Assembly (NCBI RefSeq): GCF_000011325.1
Contig: NC_003450.3
Location: forward strand, 3,240,001 to 3,272,000
Source of the DNA: Corynebacterium glutamicum ATCC 13032
GTDB taxonomy: Bacteria > Actinomycetota > Actinomycetes > Mycobacteriales > Mycobacteriaceae
Length of the DNA: 32,000 nt
Direction of reading: 5' to 3'
In this document: piece after piece, positions 9,185 through 12,728 of the stretch
Numbering within the stretch: the stretch's first letter is position 1
Layout of the letters: each line of letters begins with the position of its first letter
The notes under the pieces: generated by a model
What the model saw: only the letters and a program-made list of their open reading frames with translations
Database searches by the model: none
Told to the model about the DNA's origin: nothing
Program-made: the position numbers and the translations under genes

Positions 9185-9523
9185 CTAAACGGGCAAGTCA
9201 GCTGCGTTGCGCTCTTCCACTTCCGCTCGCATGACAGAAGTCAGCAGTCCCGGAAAACGCGCTTCCATATCTTCGCTGCGCAGCGCACTTAGAATGGCAG
9301 TTCCTTCATAGCGCTGAGTAATCAGACCCGCCTCACGGAGTACGCGGAAGTGGTGCGTTGAGGTGGATTTAGATACTGGAAGCTCGAAGGCAACACATGC
9401 CTGATCATTATGTCCGCACGACAGCTGCGACAGGATTTGTCGCCTAATAGGATCCGACAGCGCAAACATGATGGCATTTAAATTCATCTCGGCCAAAGAT
9501 GGATGTTCCAATTTGCGGGCCAT
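9185..9523 (-). CDS. cyeR: ArsR-family redox-responsive transcriptional regulator
   Basis: Start moved to ATG 9523 (MARKLEHPS...), which is preceded by GGAGGG. It has an ArsR-type winged HTH (FALSDPIRRQILSQL ... SKSTSTHHFRVLREAGLI) and Cys residues in SCGHNDQAC. It is divergent from an OYE gene, as in the described CyeR-cye1 pair. Confidence 0.8.
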   Translation of the reverse strand: MARKLEHPSLAEMNLNAIMFALSDPIRRQILSQLSCGHNDQACVAFELPVSKSTSTHHFRVLREAGLITQRYEGTAILSALRSEDMEARFPGLLTSVMRAEVEERNAADLPV

Positions 9524-9562
9524 GACACCCTCCAAATGATCTCGTAAAACAGTATTGAATTT

Positions 9563-9584
9563 AGGTACGACTCTAATCGTACCT
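9563..9584. promoter_or_regulatory. inverted repeat AGGTACGA-N6-TCGTACCT, candidate CyeR operator
   Basis: Perfect 8-bp arms in the cyeR/cye1 divergent region. A second weaker copy, GTACGAtcaaacTCGTTG, lies at 9606-9623. Confidence 0.55.
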
Positions 9585-9651
9585 TGCCCTCAAGCCAAGC
9601 TAGTTGTACGATCAAACTCGTTGTATGGCAAACGTCGTACTAGTCGATCGA

Positions 9652-10746
9652 ATGGAGCCTTTGGTGTCCAAGCTGTTTACCCCAATTCAAATCCGCGACA
9701 TCACCATCCCCAACCGCGTGTGGATGTCACCGATGTGCACCTACTCTGCAGCCACCGGTTCAGGTCTTCCCACCGATTTTCACCAGGCTCATTACGCAGC
9801 TCGCGCAGCAGGTGGTGTCGGATTAGTCATGGTTGAAGCAACTGGAGTGAACCCCGTAGCTCCCATCTCCCCAGTCGACCTTGGACTTTGGAGCCATGAC
9901 CAAATTGAACCATTCTCCCGAGTGACAGCAGCTATTCGCGCCGGTGGGGCAGTACCGGCCGTTCAATTAGCCCATGCTGGCCGCAAGGCATCCACCGATG
10001 CTCCGTGGAATGGTGGCGGATATGTTGGACCAGAAACCAATGGATGGGAGACTGTCGGCCCCAGCCCTCTGGCATTCCCAGGTTTGCCTGCTCCGCGCGA
10101 GCTGACGGTTTCAGAAATCCAAGAGGTTGTGCAGCAGTTCGCTGGCGCCGCCGTTCGTGCCGATCAGGCTGGTTTTGATGTCGTGGAAATTCACGCAGCA
10201 CACGGCTACCTTTTGCATAACTTCCTTTCTCCGATCTCCAACAAGCGCACCGATTCATACGGCGGATCTTTAGAAAACCGCGCTCGCATCGTGCTCGAAG
10301 TCATTGATGCAATCCGCGCAGTGTGGCCAGAGGAAAAGCCTGTATTCATGCGCATTTCCACCACCGACTGGGTGGAGGAAAACCCACAGGATGATCGCGA
10401 GTCCTGGACGCTGAGCCAAAGCAGGCAGCTGGCTTTGTGGGCATCCGAGCACGGAGTTGATTTGATCGATGCCTCTTCTGGTGGCCTCGACATCGTCCCC
10501 ATTCCGCATGACCGCGATTACCAAACCGCGAAGGCCGCAGATCTTCACGCAAGTACCGGAGTGACAGTCGCTGCTGTGGGGCGCATTGATGACGCCCAAA
10601 CTGCGCACAATTTGGTTGATTCTGGCGATGTCAATGCAGTTTTCCTCGGCCGTCCACTGCTCAAGGATCCTTCCTGGGCAAACCAAGCAGCCCTCGCACT
10701 AGGTGCGGAACCCAGGTATGTTCACCAATACGACTACGTACTTTAA
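9652..10746 (+). CDS. cye1: NADH:flavin oxidoreductase, Old Yellow Enzyme family
   Basis: Paralog of the 5820-6932 gene, with HAAHGYLLHNFLSPISNKRTDSYGGSLENRARI. The start is ambiguous: TTG 9604 (track), ATG 9625 or ATG 9652. I prefer 9652 (MEPLVSKLFTPIQIRD) because it aligns with the paralog N terminus and leaves the second operator-like repeat outside the CDS. Confidence 0.85.
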   Translation: MEPLVSKLFTPIQIRDITIPNRVWMSPMCTYSAATGSGLPTDFHQAHYAARAAGGVGLVMVEATGVNPVAPISPVDLGLWSHDQIEPFSRVTAAIRAGGAVPAVQLAHAGRKASTDAPWNGGGYVGPETNGWETVGPSPLAFPGLPAPRELTVSEIQEVVQQFAGAAVRADQAGFDVVEIHAAHGYLLHNFLSPISNKRTDSYGGSLENRARIVLEVIDAIRAVWPEEKPVFMRISTTDWVEENPQDDRESWTLSQSRQLALWASEHGVDLIDASSGGLDIVPIPHDRDYQTAKAADLHASTGVTVAAVGRIDDAQTAHNLVDSGDVNAVFLGRPLLKDPSWANQAALALGAEPRYVHQYDYVL

Positions 10747-10758
10747 AGGAGAGTTGAC

Positions 10759-11409
10759 ATGAAGGTTTTCATCATCGGCGCTGCGGGTGGCATCGGCAAT
10801 CGACTTTCCAGCCTGCTTCACGCCAGGGGAGATGCAGTTAGCGGCATGCACCGCAATCTTGAGCAGGCCTCAAAAATCACAGACACTGGGGCAACTGCCG
10901 TACTCGGGGATCTCATCCACAACAGCACGGAGGAGCTTGCGGAGCTTTTCCGCGGTCACGATGCCATCGTATTTTCTGCAGGCGCCCACGGAACAGGGCA
11001 AGAAAATACCACGCTTATCGACGGCGCCGGCCTCCGTAAAGCCGCCGACGCTGCCAGCGCGGCCAACGTTTCACGCTTCATCTTGGTCTCTGCGTTTCCG
11101 GAATCCTCCCGCGGGGAGAACACCACCGAGAACTTTGAGCACTATATGAAGGTGAAGAAGTCCGCCGATGTCTACCTCAGTCACACTGACCTAGACTGGG
11201 TTATTGTCCGACCAGGCGTGCTTCAAGATGAGGCAGGGGATGGTTTAGTCACTGCTGGCTTAGCGATTAATTACGGCAATGTTGCTCGCGATAATGTCGC
11301 AGCGTTCATTGATGAAGCTCTGCATCAACCGCAGTTGTCAAAGATCATTGTTGAACTCACCGACGGTTCAACTCCGGTGGCGGAAGCCGTAGAACGCCTC
11401 ATCAAGTAA
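10759..11409 (+). CDS. NAD(P)-binding atypical SDR (NmrA/YwnB-like) protein
   Basis: 216 aa with the Rossmann motif MKVFIIGAAGGIGNRL. AAAGGAG SD. It lies 12 nt after the cye1 stop, consistent with an operon. Confidence 0.85.
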   Translation: MKVFIIGAAGGIGNRLSSLLHARGDAVSGMHRNLEQASKITDTGATAVLGDLIHNSTEELAELFRGHDAIVFSAGAHGTGQENTTLIDGAGLRKAADAASAANVSRFILVSAFPESSRGENTTENFEHYMKVKKSADVYLSHTDLDWVIVRPGVLQDEAGDGLVTAGLAINYGNVARDNVAAFIDEALHQPQLSKIIVELTDGSTPVAEAVERLIK

Positions 11410-11415
11410 AGACGA

Positions 11416-11455
11416 AAAGAGGGAGAATGTTTCACGTGAAACATTCTCCCTCTTT
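11416..11455. repeat. core palindrome copy 4 (40 bp perfect: AAAGAGGGAGAATGTTTCAC|GTGAAACATTCTCCCTCTTT)
   Basis: Perfect 20+20 bp palindrome. It lies 6 nt after the + strand stop (11409) and 8 nt after the - strand stop (11464) of convergent genes. Confidence 0.95.
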
Positions 11456-11463
11456 AGCTACTT

Positions 11464-11619
11464 CTAGGAAGAGAGTGAAGAAGTGTAGTGCTGTGACTCG
11501 ACTGCTTCAGGTCGCGCCCATCCCTGGAAGTGCTGGAACTGCTCTTGGATCTGAGCGCCCCACTGTGCTGGCTTGAAGTTCTGTGCGATGTCGGTGAAGT
11601 GCTGGATCTGATCAAACAT
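11464..11619 (-). CDS. small Gln/Phe-rich protein, paralog A (51 aa)
   Basis: My own translation: MFDQIQHFTDIAQNFKPAQWGAQIQEQFQHFQGWARPEAVESQHYTSSLSS*. AAGGAAATCACT precedes the ATG. It is below the track length cut-off. The track ORF 11454-11684 is a different frame. Confidence 0.7.
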   Translation of the reverse strand: MFDQIQHFTDIAQNFKPAQWGAQIQEQFQHFQGWARPEAVESQHYTSSLSS

Positions 11620-11701
11620 AGTGATTTCCTTTGCTGAGGTTGAATGAGTTCGGGGAGTAAAAACAGCTGCGCTGCGATTCTCAAGGGGAGCAGGGCTCCT
11701 C

Positions 11702-11729
11702 GGTCAATGTTTCACGTGAAACATTGACC
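11702..11729. repeat. core palindrome copy 5 (28 bp perfect: GGTCAATGTTTCAC|GTGAAACATTGACC)
   Basis: Read directly. It lies 11 nt after the stop of small-protein paralog B. Confidence 0.95.
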
Positions 11730-11740
11730 TTAAAGAGCGA

Positions 11741-11899
11741 CTAGGAGCTGAGGGAGAAAGTGCTCTTGGCTGGCTCTACAGTTTCGGTGTTAAACCAATT
11801 CTGGAAGTGCTGCTGGAACTGCTCCTGAATCTGGACACCCCACTGTGCGCCCTGGAAGTTCTGTGCAATGTCGGTGAACTGCTGGAACTGATCAAACAT
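11741..11899 (-). CDS. small Gln/Phe-rich protein, paralog B (52 aa)
   Basis: MFDQFQQFTDIAQNFQGAQWGVQIQEQFQQHFQNWFNTETVEPAKSTFSLSS*. This is the internal ATG of track ORF 11741-11935, preceded by AAGGAGATCACT. Confidence 0.75.
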   Translation of the reverse strand: MFDQFQQFTDIAQNFQGAQWGVQIQEQFQQHFQNWFNTETVEPAKSTFSLSS

Positions 11900-12094
11900 A
11901 GTGATCTCCTTAAAGTGATTGTTGTAAAGAAGCAAGAACGTCTGTTGTAAAAGGTTTAAAAAAGCTTAAGGTATCGCTAGACTTGCCACGATGAGGCTTT
12001 ACCTCCAACCGCAGCCCTCCCAGAACATCGGTTACCGATGGCGTCTCTCTGGCAGCTGAGTTGGCAGCAAAGCTAATCATTCCGGATCGCATTG

Positions 12095-12120
12095 GGGGAT
12101 GTTTCACTTGAAGCGTCCCC
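12095..12120. repeat. core palindrome copy 6, degenerate (GGGGATGTTTCAC|TTGAAGCGTCCCC)
   Basis: The left arm is intact. The right arm differs from the expected GTGAAACATCCCC at 3 positions. It lies 10 nt after the stop of paralog C. Confidence 0.8.
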
Positions 12121-12130
12121 TCATGTGTTC

Positions 12131-12301
12131 TTAGGAAGAGAGGGAAGAGGTACGCTCCGGCAGGGGAGCAGCCTCAGGGCGAACCCACTGCTGAATCTGC
12201 TGAGGGAAGTGCTGCTGGAACTGCTCCTGAATTTGAGCGCCCCACTGTGCAGGCTGGAAGTTTTGTGCAATGTCGGTGAAGTGCTGAATCTGATCGAACA
12301 T
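12131..12301 (-). CDS. small Gln/Phe-rich protein, paralog C (56 aa)
   Basis: My own translation: MFDQIQHFTDIAQNFQPAQWGAQIQEQFQQHFPQQIQQWVRPEAAPLPERTSSLSS*. AAAAGGAGTTCAAC precedes the ATG. The track ORF 12121-12510 is another frame. Confidence 0.7.
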   Translation of the reverse strand: MFDQIQHFTDIAQNFQPAQWGAQIQEQFQQHFPQQIQQWVRPEAAPLPERTSSLSS

Positions 12302-12332
12302 GTTGAACTCCTTTTAAGTGGTTGAGTGAGAT

Positions 12333-12413
12333 TTAGGAAGAAAGAACGACTGCAGAGAAGATGTCGGAAACGCTTCCCAGGACAGTGTTGAAGATGTTGA
12401 CGATGTATCCCAT
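12333..12413 (-). CDS. candidate 26-aa hydrophobic small ORF
   Basis: ATG at 12413 to TAA at 12333-12335: MGYIVNIFNTVLGSVSDIFSAVVLSS*. Codons are mostly C-ending preferred codons (ATC GTC AAC TTC CTG TCC GAC). It ends 31 nt upstream of paralog C and shares the ...LSS-stop ending. The SD is weak (GAAAG). Confidence 0.3.
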   Translation of the reverse strand: MGYIVNIFNTVLGSVSDIFSAVVLSS

Positions 12414-12728
12414 GAAAAGAACTCACTTTCTCGTGTACTTGCAAGGTGTGCCAGCGACGGTGTGTTCCGTTGCTGTGACTTGAAGTTAACACCGAAAAAA
12501 TTTTTCCCACAAACAGCGGTCAGACCAATTTTCAACTCCGTGACCTGCACAAATGCAAAAATACTGAAGTTTATGGGAATTCCCCCATCATCATGATCTA
12601 GCTGCGGAAATGGCATATCATCATGGCTAACCAACAAAGGTCATCTCAACCGGCTTAAGAAAATTCTGCCAGCTTTCTGCTGATTGAATCGTGCCAGCTC
12701 AGGGCATATCTCACCTAAAGTAAACACC

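Follow-up and report, generated by a model that had tools for sequence, protein, structure and literature searches.

The three glutamine-rich small genes described here are real, and they have already been published as those encoding GrtA, GrtB and GrtC. They lie in an origin-proximal part of a Corynebacterium glutamicum ATCC 13032-type chromosome, which was analysed as a single stretch of 32,000 nucleotides (the window). With high probability, the best overall explanation of these open reading frames (ORFs) is that they are grtC, grtB and grtA of the published AsgR-controlled, type I toxin-antitoxin (TA)-like stress module. Three features of the locus, namely a 26-aa ORF upstream of grtA (orf26), the invariant C-terminal L-S-S and the parS nature of the hairpins behind grtC and grtB, were absent from the accessible literature, and the original study of Maeda et al. 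(2018) may mention some of them.

Identity of the three genes

An exact-sequence look-up in public records matched the genes termed A, B and C in the preliminary description to cgp_3376/GrtC, cgp_3377/GrtB and cgp_3378/GrtA, respectively, GrtC, GrtB and GrtA being the NCBI names for the proteins of cg3376, cg3377 and cg3378:

11464..11619, minus strand: grtC (cg3376/cgp_3376; gene A), 51 aa, exact match to UniProt Q8NLA1
11741..11899, minus strand: grtB (cg3377/cgp_3377; gene B), 52 aa, exact public match
12131..12301, minus strand: grtA (cg3378/cgp_3378; gene C), 56 aa, exact public match

The preliminary description could place the proteins in no family and thereby implied that they were novel, which does not hold, given that the sequences are identical to those of the named and functionally described cg3376, cg3377 and cg3378. 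It had also stated that two of the genes were missed by the ORF track; this reflects only the length cut-off of that track, and all three genes are publicly annotated as cgp_3376 to cgp_3378.

The name grtABC stands for "glutamine-rich toxic proteins" (Maeda, Tanaka & Inui, Mol Microbiol 2018, doi 10.1111/mmi.13951; cited in PMC6563280 and PMC12414873). As that work is summarized in the two citing papers, Grt proteins halt growth when over-produced, an effect from which AsgR, an antisense RNA that keeps the grt mRNAs low, is reported to rescue the cells; a review sentence among them describes grtABC-AsgR as a type I TA-like system with a role in stress response (PMC6563280, PMC12414873). According to the title of the original study, each grt gene singly causes complete inhibition of E. 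coli growth (Maeda et al., 2018), and GrtA is likewise described as a protein that 'inhibits E. coli growth'. RefSeq, contrary to that title, calls the Grt proteins 'antitoxin'. Judging from the same title and from the review sentence, the checks proposed in the preliminary description, stress expression and a deletion phenotype, have already been published (Maeda et al., 2018). All three genes already carry annotations and names, their phenotype and RNA regulator have been published, and the triplet itself adds nothing new. The original work reportedly covers stress expression and the deletion phenotype as well, with deletion of grtABC-asgR said to reduce stress survival and toxicity in C. 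glutamicum itself said to be only moderate. RNase III dependence, the inducing stresses, an overlap of AsgR with the grtA 3' end and cgR locus tags are also reportedly given there.

Coding evidence and selection

All three minus-strand ORFs are present with the translations originally given, Shine-Dalgarno (SD) motifs (AAGGAAATCACT, AAGGAGATCACT and AAAAGGAGTTCAAC) stand immediately 5' of the three ATGs, and S-L-S-S-stop forms the C-terminus of every one of the three genes, all as previously described. The ATG of grtA is preceded by the SD AAAAGGAG, that of grtC by AAGGAA, and that of grtB, at 11899, follows AAGGAG; a TTG-extended, 64-aa version of the grtB ORF is unsupported by the paralog alignment. 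Recounting the first 30 codons of grtC against grtA reproduced the 10 nucleotide differences reported before, nine of them at third positions and eight synonymous. The purifying selection that had been deduced from this count is borne out by low dN/dS both among the paralogs and between species. By the Nei-Gojobori method, paralog dN/dS is 0.013-0.13 for the first 32 codons and higher, at 0.20-0.55, towards the C-terminus; between species, the grt genes give values of 0.09-0.26, with grtA at <=0.25 against its orthologs in C. suranareeae, C. deserti and C. callunae. Frame-breaking changes were found in none of the paralogs, orthologs and strain variants, every indel being a multiple of three; even a 69-nt internal deletion in grtC of one C. 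glutamicum strain is in frame.

As had also been noted, a Ser/Thr/Arg-rich alternative frame is open in grtC (11454-11684) and in grtA (12121-12510) and broken in grtB. Since this frame is open in two of the genes, and since an antisense RNA and parS sites exist at the locus, it might be argued that the conservation stems from the alternative frame or from an RNA or DNA element (antisense RNA, parS) and not from the Grt proteins. The chance of this is negligible, and the substitution pattern already refutes such an origin: substitutions in the Grt frame are overwhelmingly synonymous, with dN/dS falling to 0.013 among paralogs and remaining within the above range between species. The indels are all in frame, and the alternative frame is interrupted in grtB and in orthologs, being cut short in those of C. 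deserti and C. callunae. The coding regions, moreover, contain neither the candidate antisense RNA nor the parS sites.

Antisense RNA

A plus-strand SigA transcription start site (TSS) has been mapped to genome position 3225297 (Mentz, 2013; PMC4046766, supplementary file 1), where it is flagged as antisense to the cg3377 5'UTR and associated with a rho-independent terminator. With window coordinates equal to genome coordinates minus 3213307, a relation calibrated on two hairpins, this TSS corresponds to position 11990, between grtB and grtA:

11990..12132, plus strand: small RNA cgb_33775 ('cg4021'), with a -10 box TAGACT at 11978-11983 and an approximate 3' end

The transcript that starts at 11990 is arranged either back-to-back with the grtB 5' region or antisense to it; it passes a hairpin at 12094-12121 that finishes 10 nt short of the grtA stop codon, and reaches that stop codon. 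Folding of cgb_33775 gave -57.2 kcal/mol (z = -3.5), and its promoter, 5' end and hairpin are kept in C. suranareeae. The 22-aa leaderless ORF 'cg4021' inside it is not kept in that species, where its fourth codon is a stop, and for this reason it was not accepted as a gene. Rfam contained no family for the RNA. We infer that this plus-strand RNA is probably AsgR.

The candidate shows perfect complementarity solely to the grtA 3' UTR/terminator. Duplex prediction against the grtB and grtC mRNAs gave -72.6 and -74.3 kcal/mol, respectively, as compared with approximately -75 ± 6 for shuffled sequences, and no trans-pairing site on these two mRNAs is therefore claimed. Given that the pairing with grtB and grtC is no better than shuffled, the control of all three genes by one RNA is unexplained by this analysis. 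In the mechanism that we propose, AsgR would pair perfectly with the 3' end of the grtA mRNA and may pair partially with the related grtC 3' end (with that of grtB less well) or with the grtB leader, and such pairing would trigger decay of the grt mRNAs.

The orf26-grtA region

Two further conserved features lie upstream of grtA:

12333..12413, minus strand: orf26, an unannotated ORF of 26 aa (MGYIVNIFNTVLGSVSDIFSAVVLSS), 31 nt upstream of grtA
12458..12495, minus strand: conserved block GGTGTTAACTTCAAGTCACAGCAACGGAACACACCG upstream of orf26, a possible promoter or 5' region for transcription of orf26 and grtA

orf26 and grtA probably form an operon in which orf26 comes first. orf26 holds the same position before a grt gene in C. 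deserti (2864-2944), C. callunae (2872-2952) and C. suranareeae, and 22 of its 26 residues are invariant across C. glutamicum, C. deserti and C. callunae, with one more change, Y3C, in C. suranareeae. Nucleotide differences fall mostly on third positions (10 of the 12 between C. glutamicum and C. callunae), dN/dS is 0.07-0.39, and the ORF is identical across six C. glutamicum genomes. Its product is hydrophobic (GRAVY +1.31) and ends in an invariant VLSS. The exact sequence was missing from a collection of 15 billion proteins, and a scan of metagenome contigs gave no matches to it. The inclusion or omission of orf26 in constructs could have affected the published grtA phenotypes.

The block at 12458..12495 is the sole well-conserved non-coding stretch upstream of orf26 in a three-species alignment and also occurs in C. 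suranareeae; it may function as a promoter or 5' region. Published transcript data report no TSS for cg3378, and a sigma-70 scan upstream of orf26 returned nothing in the conserved block. A promoter of the SigH, SigE or SigD type was also considered there, and by-eye comparison with consensus sequences of these types was unconvincing.

parS hairpins, distribution and duplication

Each of the three genes is followed by a hairpin (none is assigned to a strand):

11416..11455, unstranded: hairpin downstream of grtC, common to the convergent cg3375, with a perfect parS at 11427-11444
11702..11729, unstranded: hairpin downstream of grtB, with a perfect parS at 11707-11724
12094..12121, unstranded: hairpin behind grtA, a parS degenerate at three positions, which on the plus strand doubles as the terminator-like hairpin of the AsgR candidate

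The 18-bp parS palindrome occurs in nine copies in the window, where none would be expected, the perfect copy at 11427-11444 being one of them. A parS consensus and a cluster of ten sites have been published, in which parS5 and parS6 form a close pair and in which degenerate parS with three or more mismatches failed to recruit ParB (PMC7083940). The spacing of 280 bp between the sites behind grtC and grtB agrees with this close pair, and, going by sequence, the hairpins at 11416..11455 and 11702..11729 probably carry parS5 and parS6, respectively. The former also scored as a terminator-like site, and a terminator has been called for cg3375/cg3376 (Pfeifer-Sancar, 2013).

An exhaustive HMMER search with an 11-sequence profile against 1.84 billion representatives returned only Grt proteins of the C. 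glutamicum group and one low-complexity match in a protein of 3130 aa, and a scan of genome contigs gave C. callunae as its sole match. The family was seen only in C. glutamicum, C. suranareeae, C. deserti and C. callunae, with three, two, one and one copies, respectively, and constant flanking genes; many complete genomes of C. glutamicum carry the three-gene locus with constant neighbours. These copy numbers suggest that tandem duplication of an ancestral unit of orf26, grt and a parS hairpin gave rise to the three genes, and that C. deserti and C. callunae have kept this unit as a single copy. Local alignment of the 3' half of orf26 with the sequences that precede grtB and grtC scored 38 and 37 (shuffle maxima 39 and 32), and because this similarity is marginal, we offer decayed orf26 copies at these two places as a suggestion only. 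Tandem duplication of a small-gene unit together with its parS hairpin would have multiplied the ParB loading sites too, and the grt/parS locus would in this way provide a concrete example of parS cluster growth.

In a published transcript listing, each grt gene has its own monocistronic transcript. The mRNAs of cg3377 and cg3378 were up 8.8-fold and 11.3-fold, respectively, in a copRS mutant under copper stress (PMC3140484). Entries for cg3376-3378 were absent from the SigD-paper supplements that were searched.

Protein properties and predicted structure

The composition given in the preliminary description, with 20-25 % Gln, a net charge of -3 to -4 and neither Cys nor a hydrophobic segment, was reproduced, and the GRAVY of the Grt proteins is -0.70 to -0.81. 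A signal-like N-terminal segment was found neither in the Grt proteins (51-56 aa) nor in orf26 (26 aa). Two helices joined at the P/G-A-Q-W-G position had been proposed from the hydrophobic spacing, and the AlphaFold2 model obtained with a family alignment matches this proposal, with a break at that position; its helices span residues 2-14, 17-31 and 33-40, the tail is disordered and the mean pLDDT is 71. The model points to a fold with a helical N-terminal half (approximately residues 2-40) and a disordered tail that ends in the invariant L-S-S. This tail is variable in sequence except for its last residues, which read NLSS in C. callunae and SLSS in every copy from the other three species. 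Searches of Pfam, NCBIfam, PADLOC and PDB sequences, as well as Foldseek against the PDB, gave no meaningful match for the Grt proteins or orf26, with zero matches at E <= 10 in Pfam and NCBIfam.

Alternative explanations of function

The Grt proteins might be stress-protective hydrophilic proteins, with the growth arrest a dosage artefact and the antisense RNA tuning a member of a stress regulon. Several properties speak for such a role, as the proteins are hydrophilic, Gln-rich, partly disordered and devoid of a membrane segment, and in four species the genes sit on the chromosome in conserved synteny, have been inherited vertically and show no mobile-element context. The reported loss of stress survival on deletion and the moderate toxicity said to be seen in the own host count in the same direction. 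Induction of the grt genes under stress (PMC3140484; review statement in PMC6563280 or PMC12414873) can be added to these. We nevertheless regard this explanation as unlikely, given that each single gene, going by the title of the original study, inhibits E. coli growth completely (Maeda et al., 2018) and that a dedicated, growth-rescuing antisense RNA is a hallmark of toxin-antitoxin systems.

It is quite doubtful that orf26 and the Grt proteins are exported without a signal peptide, O-mycoloylated by Cmt1/MytC on the penultimate Ser of the C-terminal L-S-S and active in the mycomembrane, where the two might work together in the manner of PorA-PorH, with over-expression toxicity due to membrane damage. 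The idea arises from the last residues, which are invariant (SLSS/NLSS in Grt, VLSS in orf26) despite the variable Grt tail and match the penultimate position of the mycoloylated serine in PorH (…NFSS; Ser56 of 57) and ProtX (Ser37 of 38), NFSS also being the C-terminus of PorB (PMC5310785, PMC13643282). As in PorH/PorA, adjacent signal-peptide-less small genes encode one acidic protein of approximately 55 aa and one hydrophobic protein, the GRAVY of +1.31 for orf26 comparing with +0.79 for PorA. On the other side, neither sequence is related to any Pfam family, PorA/PorH included, non-Grt relatives were absent among the 1.84 billion representatives, and Grt is strongly hydrophilic (GRAVY -0.8 vs -0.04 for PorH). 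Moreover, toxicity occurs in mycolate-free E. coli, and Ser-Ser at the C-terminus is a weak motif, chosen post hoc, for a modification that has no consensus. The mycoloylome supplements searched lack cg3376-3378, and published MALDI spectra of solvent extracts list PorA, PorH and ProtX only; both negatives carry little weight, since small proteins easily escape detection, bottom-up mycoloylome proteomics being poor at finding them, and since the genes are stress-induced. An equally slim chance is given to the ancestral orf26-grt operon being a stress-induced, PorA/PorH-like mycomembrane module with both products mycoloylated and toxicity a by-product of membrane activity. If true, Grt and orf26 would belong to the poorly charted signal-peptide-less mycomembrane proteins.

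Comparison with known systems

PorH, PorA and ProtX resemble the products of the grt locus in being small and signal-peptide-less, in the pairing of an acidic with a hydrophobic gene and in the x-S-S C-terminus, whose penultimate serine bears the mycolate in PorH and ProtX; they differ in showing no detectable sequence or profile similarity, in their chromosomal locus and in that Grt is far more hydrophilic. The helical hairpins of the WXG100/ESAT-6-like proteins comprise approximately 100 aa with a W-x-G turn, whereas the Grt turn is Q-W-G and the helical part covers approximately 40 residues; for membership in WXG100, Pfam gave no match to Grt and the PDB no structural match.

The GrtABC-AsgR module of C. 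glutamicum is the same system as that found in the window, with identical proteins, three tandem paralogs and an opposite-strand RNA between grtB and grtA. Like classical type I TA systems (Hok/Sok, TisB/IstR, Fst, SprA1/SprA1AS), in which a cis-encoded antisense RNA lowers the mRNA of a toxin of <60 aa, it has small proteins that are reportedly toxic when over-expressed, the 51, 52 and 56 aa of Grt lying under the limit of approximately 60 aa. Classical type I toxins are, however, hydrophobic membrane peptides, whereas Grt is hydrophilic, acidic and Gln-rich and has no transmembrane segment, its GRAVY being clearly negative and the AlphaFold2 helices short and amphipathic. The published label is 'TA-like' because the Grt proteins do not have a hydrophobic membrane-spanning helix. 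The module also differs from the classical type in that three paralogous toxins are reportedly placed under one RNA, and in that the hydrophobic peptide at the grt locus is the unannotated orf26, whereas in classical type I systems it is the toxin that is hydrophobic.

Identity and reading frame of the grt genes

The three small ORFs of the preliminary description, all present on the same (minus) strand at the coordinates given there, are the already published GrtABC toxins; the genes themselves are not new.

11464-11619, minus strand: A (grtC), 51 aa
11741-11899, minus strand: B (grtB), 52 aa
12131-12301, minus strand: C (grtA), 56 aa

Exact-sequence look-up identified A as cgp_3376 (GrtC, UniProt Q8NLA1), B as cgp_3377 (GrtB) and C as cgp_3378 (GrtA), all of C. 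glutamicum ATCC 13032/MB001. A three-sequence profile matched 15 proteins in a 5.8-billion-cluster protein collection, every one with a source name belonging to C. glutamicum or C. suranareeae; NCBI names one of the 15 'type I toxin-antitoxin system antitoxin GrtB'. Searches of Pfam and NCBIfam matched no family to A, B or C. The earlier observation and its coding interpretation were right, and the proteins, not placed in any family in that description, are identical with GrtABC.

The Shine-Dalgarno-like sequence quoted earlier was found 5' of the ATG in A, B and C, all three proteins end in S-L-S-S, and A and C differ over codons 1-30 at exactly 10 nucleotides (9/10 third positions, 8/10 synonymous). 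The purifying selection proposed for this frame is borne out by paralog dN/dS values of 0.013-0.13 over the N-terminal 32 codons; the C-terminal part of the genes gives 0.20-0.55 (both Nei-Gojobori). The alternative Ser/Thr/Arg-rich frame is, as described, open in A and C and broken in B, and it is broken in grt orthologs too. The reported composition was reproduced, with Gln making up 20-25% of residues and a net charge between -3 and -4; GRAVY is about -0.8. The suggestion of two helices agrees with the AlphaFold2 model (family alignment, mean pLDDT 71), in which residues 2-14, 17-31 and 33-40 are helical and residues 41-56 form a disordered tail; the PDB contained no relative by structure or by sequence.

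According to the paper on grtABC and its antisense RNA, AsgR, any one grt gene reportedly blocks growth of E. coli and AsgR rescues it, with moderate toxicity in C. glutamicum; grt mRNA levels are said to rise without AsgR or without RNase III, and deletion of the whole module to lower survival under stress. The reported inducers are heat, penicillin G and H2O2. A citing paper terms grtABC-AsgR a type I TA-like, stress-response system (PMC6563280), PMC12414873 likewise cites the work, and a further paper mentions that GrtA inhibits E. coli growth. Under copper stress, cg3377 and cg3378 are listed as up 8.8-fold and 11.3-fold in a copRS mutant (PMC3140484). The RefSeq product names of cg3376-cg3378, 'type I toxin-antitoxin system antitoxin GrtA/B/C', contradict the source paper's account, in which toxicity lies with the proteins and AsgR is an RNA antidote; 'antitoxin' was probably put into these names by mistake, and the mistake will spread.

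Distribution and genomic neighborhood

An exhaustive HMMER search (11-sequence profile, 1.84 billion representatives) matched only the Grt family, including a 53-aa member in C. deserti. The copy number varied by species (1 in C. deserti, 1 in C. callunae, 2 in C. suranareeae and 3 in C. glutamicum). Between-species dN/dS is 0.09-0.26. The locus lies at ~3.22 Mb in many complete C. glutamicum genomes, and its neighborhood is constant in 4/4 species: the grt genes are flanked by an Old-Yellow-Enzyme gene and, at the opposite end, by TatA/E and MFS genes. The following genes lie on the grtC side.

9185-9535, minus strand: ArsR-type HTH regulator
9604-10746, plus strand: Old-Yellow-Enzyme flavin oxidoreductase
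10759-11409, plus strand: NmrA-like NAD-binding protein

We take the genes at 9185-11409 to be the redox-responsive cyeR-cye1 module, and the grt genes would therefore adjoin another stress regulon.

In-frame internal grt deletions between CAGCACTTC repeats occur in some strains, which suggests repeat-mediated slippage and tolerated loss of one paralog. Such C. glutamicum genes were seen in locus L005 (3683-3769) and as P0010 and P0013; in one grtC, 69 nt are missing between a pair of CAGCACTTC repeats, and the product is reduced to 28 aa.

A conserved small ORF upstream of grtA

Separated from grtA by 31 nt lies an unannotated, hydrophobic 26-aa ORF, here called orf26, which, judging from its substitutions, purifying selection has conserved across four Corynebacterium species.

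12333-12413, minus strand: orf26, 26 aa, MGYIVNIFNTVLGSVSDIFSAVVLSS
L008 2864-2944: orf26 in C. deserti
L001 2872-2952: orf26 in C. callunae
L010 ~2045-2125: orf26 in C. suranareeae
12314-12637, minus strand: 107-aa ORF overlapping orf26 in another frame
12458-12495, minus strand: conserved non-coding block 5' of orf26 in all four species, GGTGTTAACTTCAAGTCACAGCAACGGAACACACCG

The ORF occupies the same position 5' of the single grt gene in C. deserti and C. callunae and precedes a grtA-like gene in C. suranareeae. Across C. glutamicum, C. deserti and C. callunae 22/26 residues are invariant, nucleotide differences fall mainly at third positions (e.g., 10/12 between C. glutamicum and C. callunae), and dN/dS is 0.07-0.39. 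The sequence is identical in 6 C. glutamicum genomes, and exact-sequence look-up found it absent from a 15-billion-protein collection. Some annotations (L003, L004, L006, L007, L012) instead call ORFs of 100-152 aa 5' of grtA; because the substitution pattern favors the orf26 frame, these calls are probably spurious. Long other-frame ORFs overlap orf26 and grtA at 12314-12637 and 12121-12510, both on the minus strand. The regions 5' of grtB and grtC bear only marginal likeness to the 3' half of orf26.

The block at 12458-12495 may serve an orf26-grtA operon as its promoter, and a stress-responsive promoter or operator is the candidate role for it; comparison with sigma-factor consensus gave no assignment.

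Centromere sites within the grt units

The hairpins 3' of grtC and of grtB contain the 18-mer ATGTTTCACGTGAAACAT, the parS consensus (cf. PMC7083940), which has 9 perfect copies in the window against 0 expected.

192, 2798, 5792, 11427, 11707, 15477, 16416, 31147, 31258: copies of ATGTTTCACGTGAAACAT

The C. glutamicum centromere is described as a 35-kb parS cluster with the close pairs parS5/6 and parS9/10 (Böhm et al., 2020; PMC7083940). The nine copies fit parS2-parS10, those after grtC and grtB being probably parS5 and parS6, and the hairpin 3' of grtA holds a degenerate parS (3 mismatches, 12099). Given that the order is orf26-grt-parS in both species with a single grt copy (C. deserti, C. 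callunae), tandem duplication of the grt unit probably also duplicated the centromere site and so multiplied a ParB loading site. Most parS copies lie within longer site-specific inverted repeats resembling bidirectional terminators.

A candidate for AsgR

In the data of Mentz et al. (2013; PMC4046766, supplementary file 1), a SigA-type transcription start on the plus strand is entered for genome position 3,225,297, which corresponds to 11990 in the window (genome coordinate minus 3,213,307, calibrated on a pair of hairpins in the list of Pfeifer-Sancar et al., 2013). The entry, named cgb_33775/cg4021, carries two flags, one for being antisense to the 5' UTR of cg3377 and one for a rho-independent terminator (PMC4046766).

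11978-11983, plus strand: -10 box TAGACT of cgb_33775
11991-12059, plus strand: leaderless 22-aa ORF of cg4021, MRLYLQPQPSQNIGYRWRLSGS
12094-12121: hairpin, terminator-like on the plus strand by scan, ending 10 nt short of the grtA stop codon

A transcript from 11990 would pass through this hairpin. The 143-nt stretch folds at -57.2 kcal/mol (z = -3.5), and C. suranareeae retains the -10 box along with the transcript's 5' end and hairpin. We infer that the transcript is AsgR. For its pairing with the grtB and grtC mRNAs, duplex energies equaled those of shuffles. The leaderless ORF proposed within it (Mentz et al., 2013; PMC4046766) was rejected as a gene, as C. suranareeae reads GTG AGG CTT TAA there, a stop at codon 4, and because of this lack of conservation the transcript is probably non-coding.

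Comparison with mycoloylated envelope proteins

The Grt tail is variable, but its final L-S-S is invariant across all copies and species, and orf26 likewise ends in L-S-S. PorH (ending in NFSS) and ProtX, small mycomembrane proteins of C. glutamicum without signal peptides, are O-mycoloylated on the penultimate serine, and NFSS is also the C-terminus of PorB (PMC5310785, PMC13643282). A reading of orf26 and Grt as envelope proteins that are likewise mycoloylated is unlikely: Grt lacks sequence homology to PorH and ProtX, is hydrophilic and does not appear in the mycoloylome lists searched. The likeness resides in the C-terminal Ser-Ser of Grt and orf26, set against the mycolate-bearing penultimate serine of PorH and ProtX, and we regard it as a sequence-based lead, not a result.
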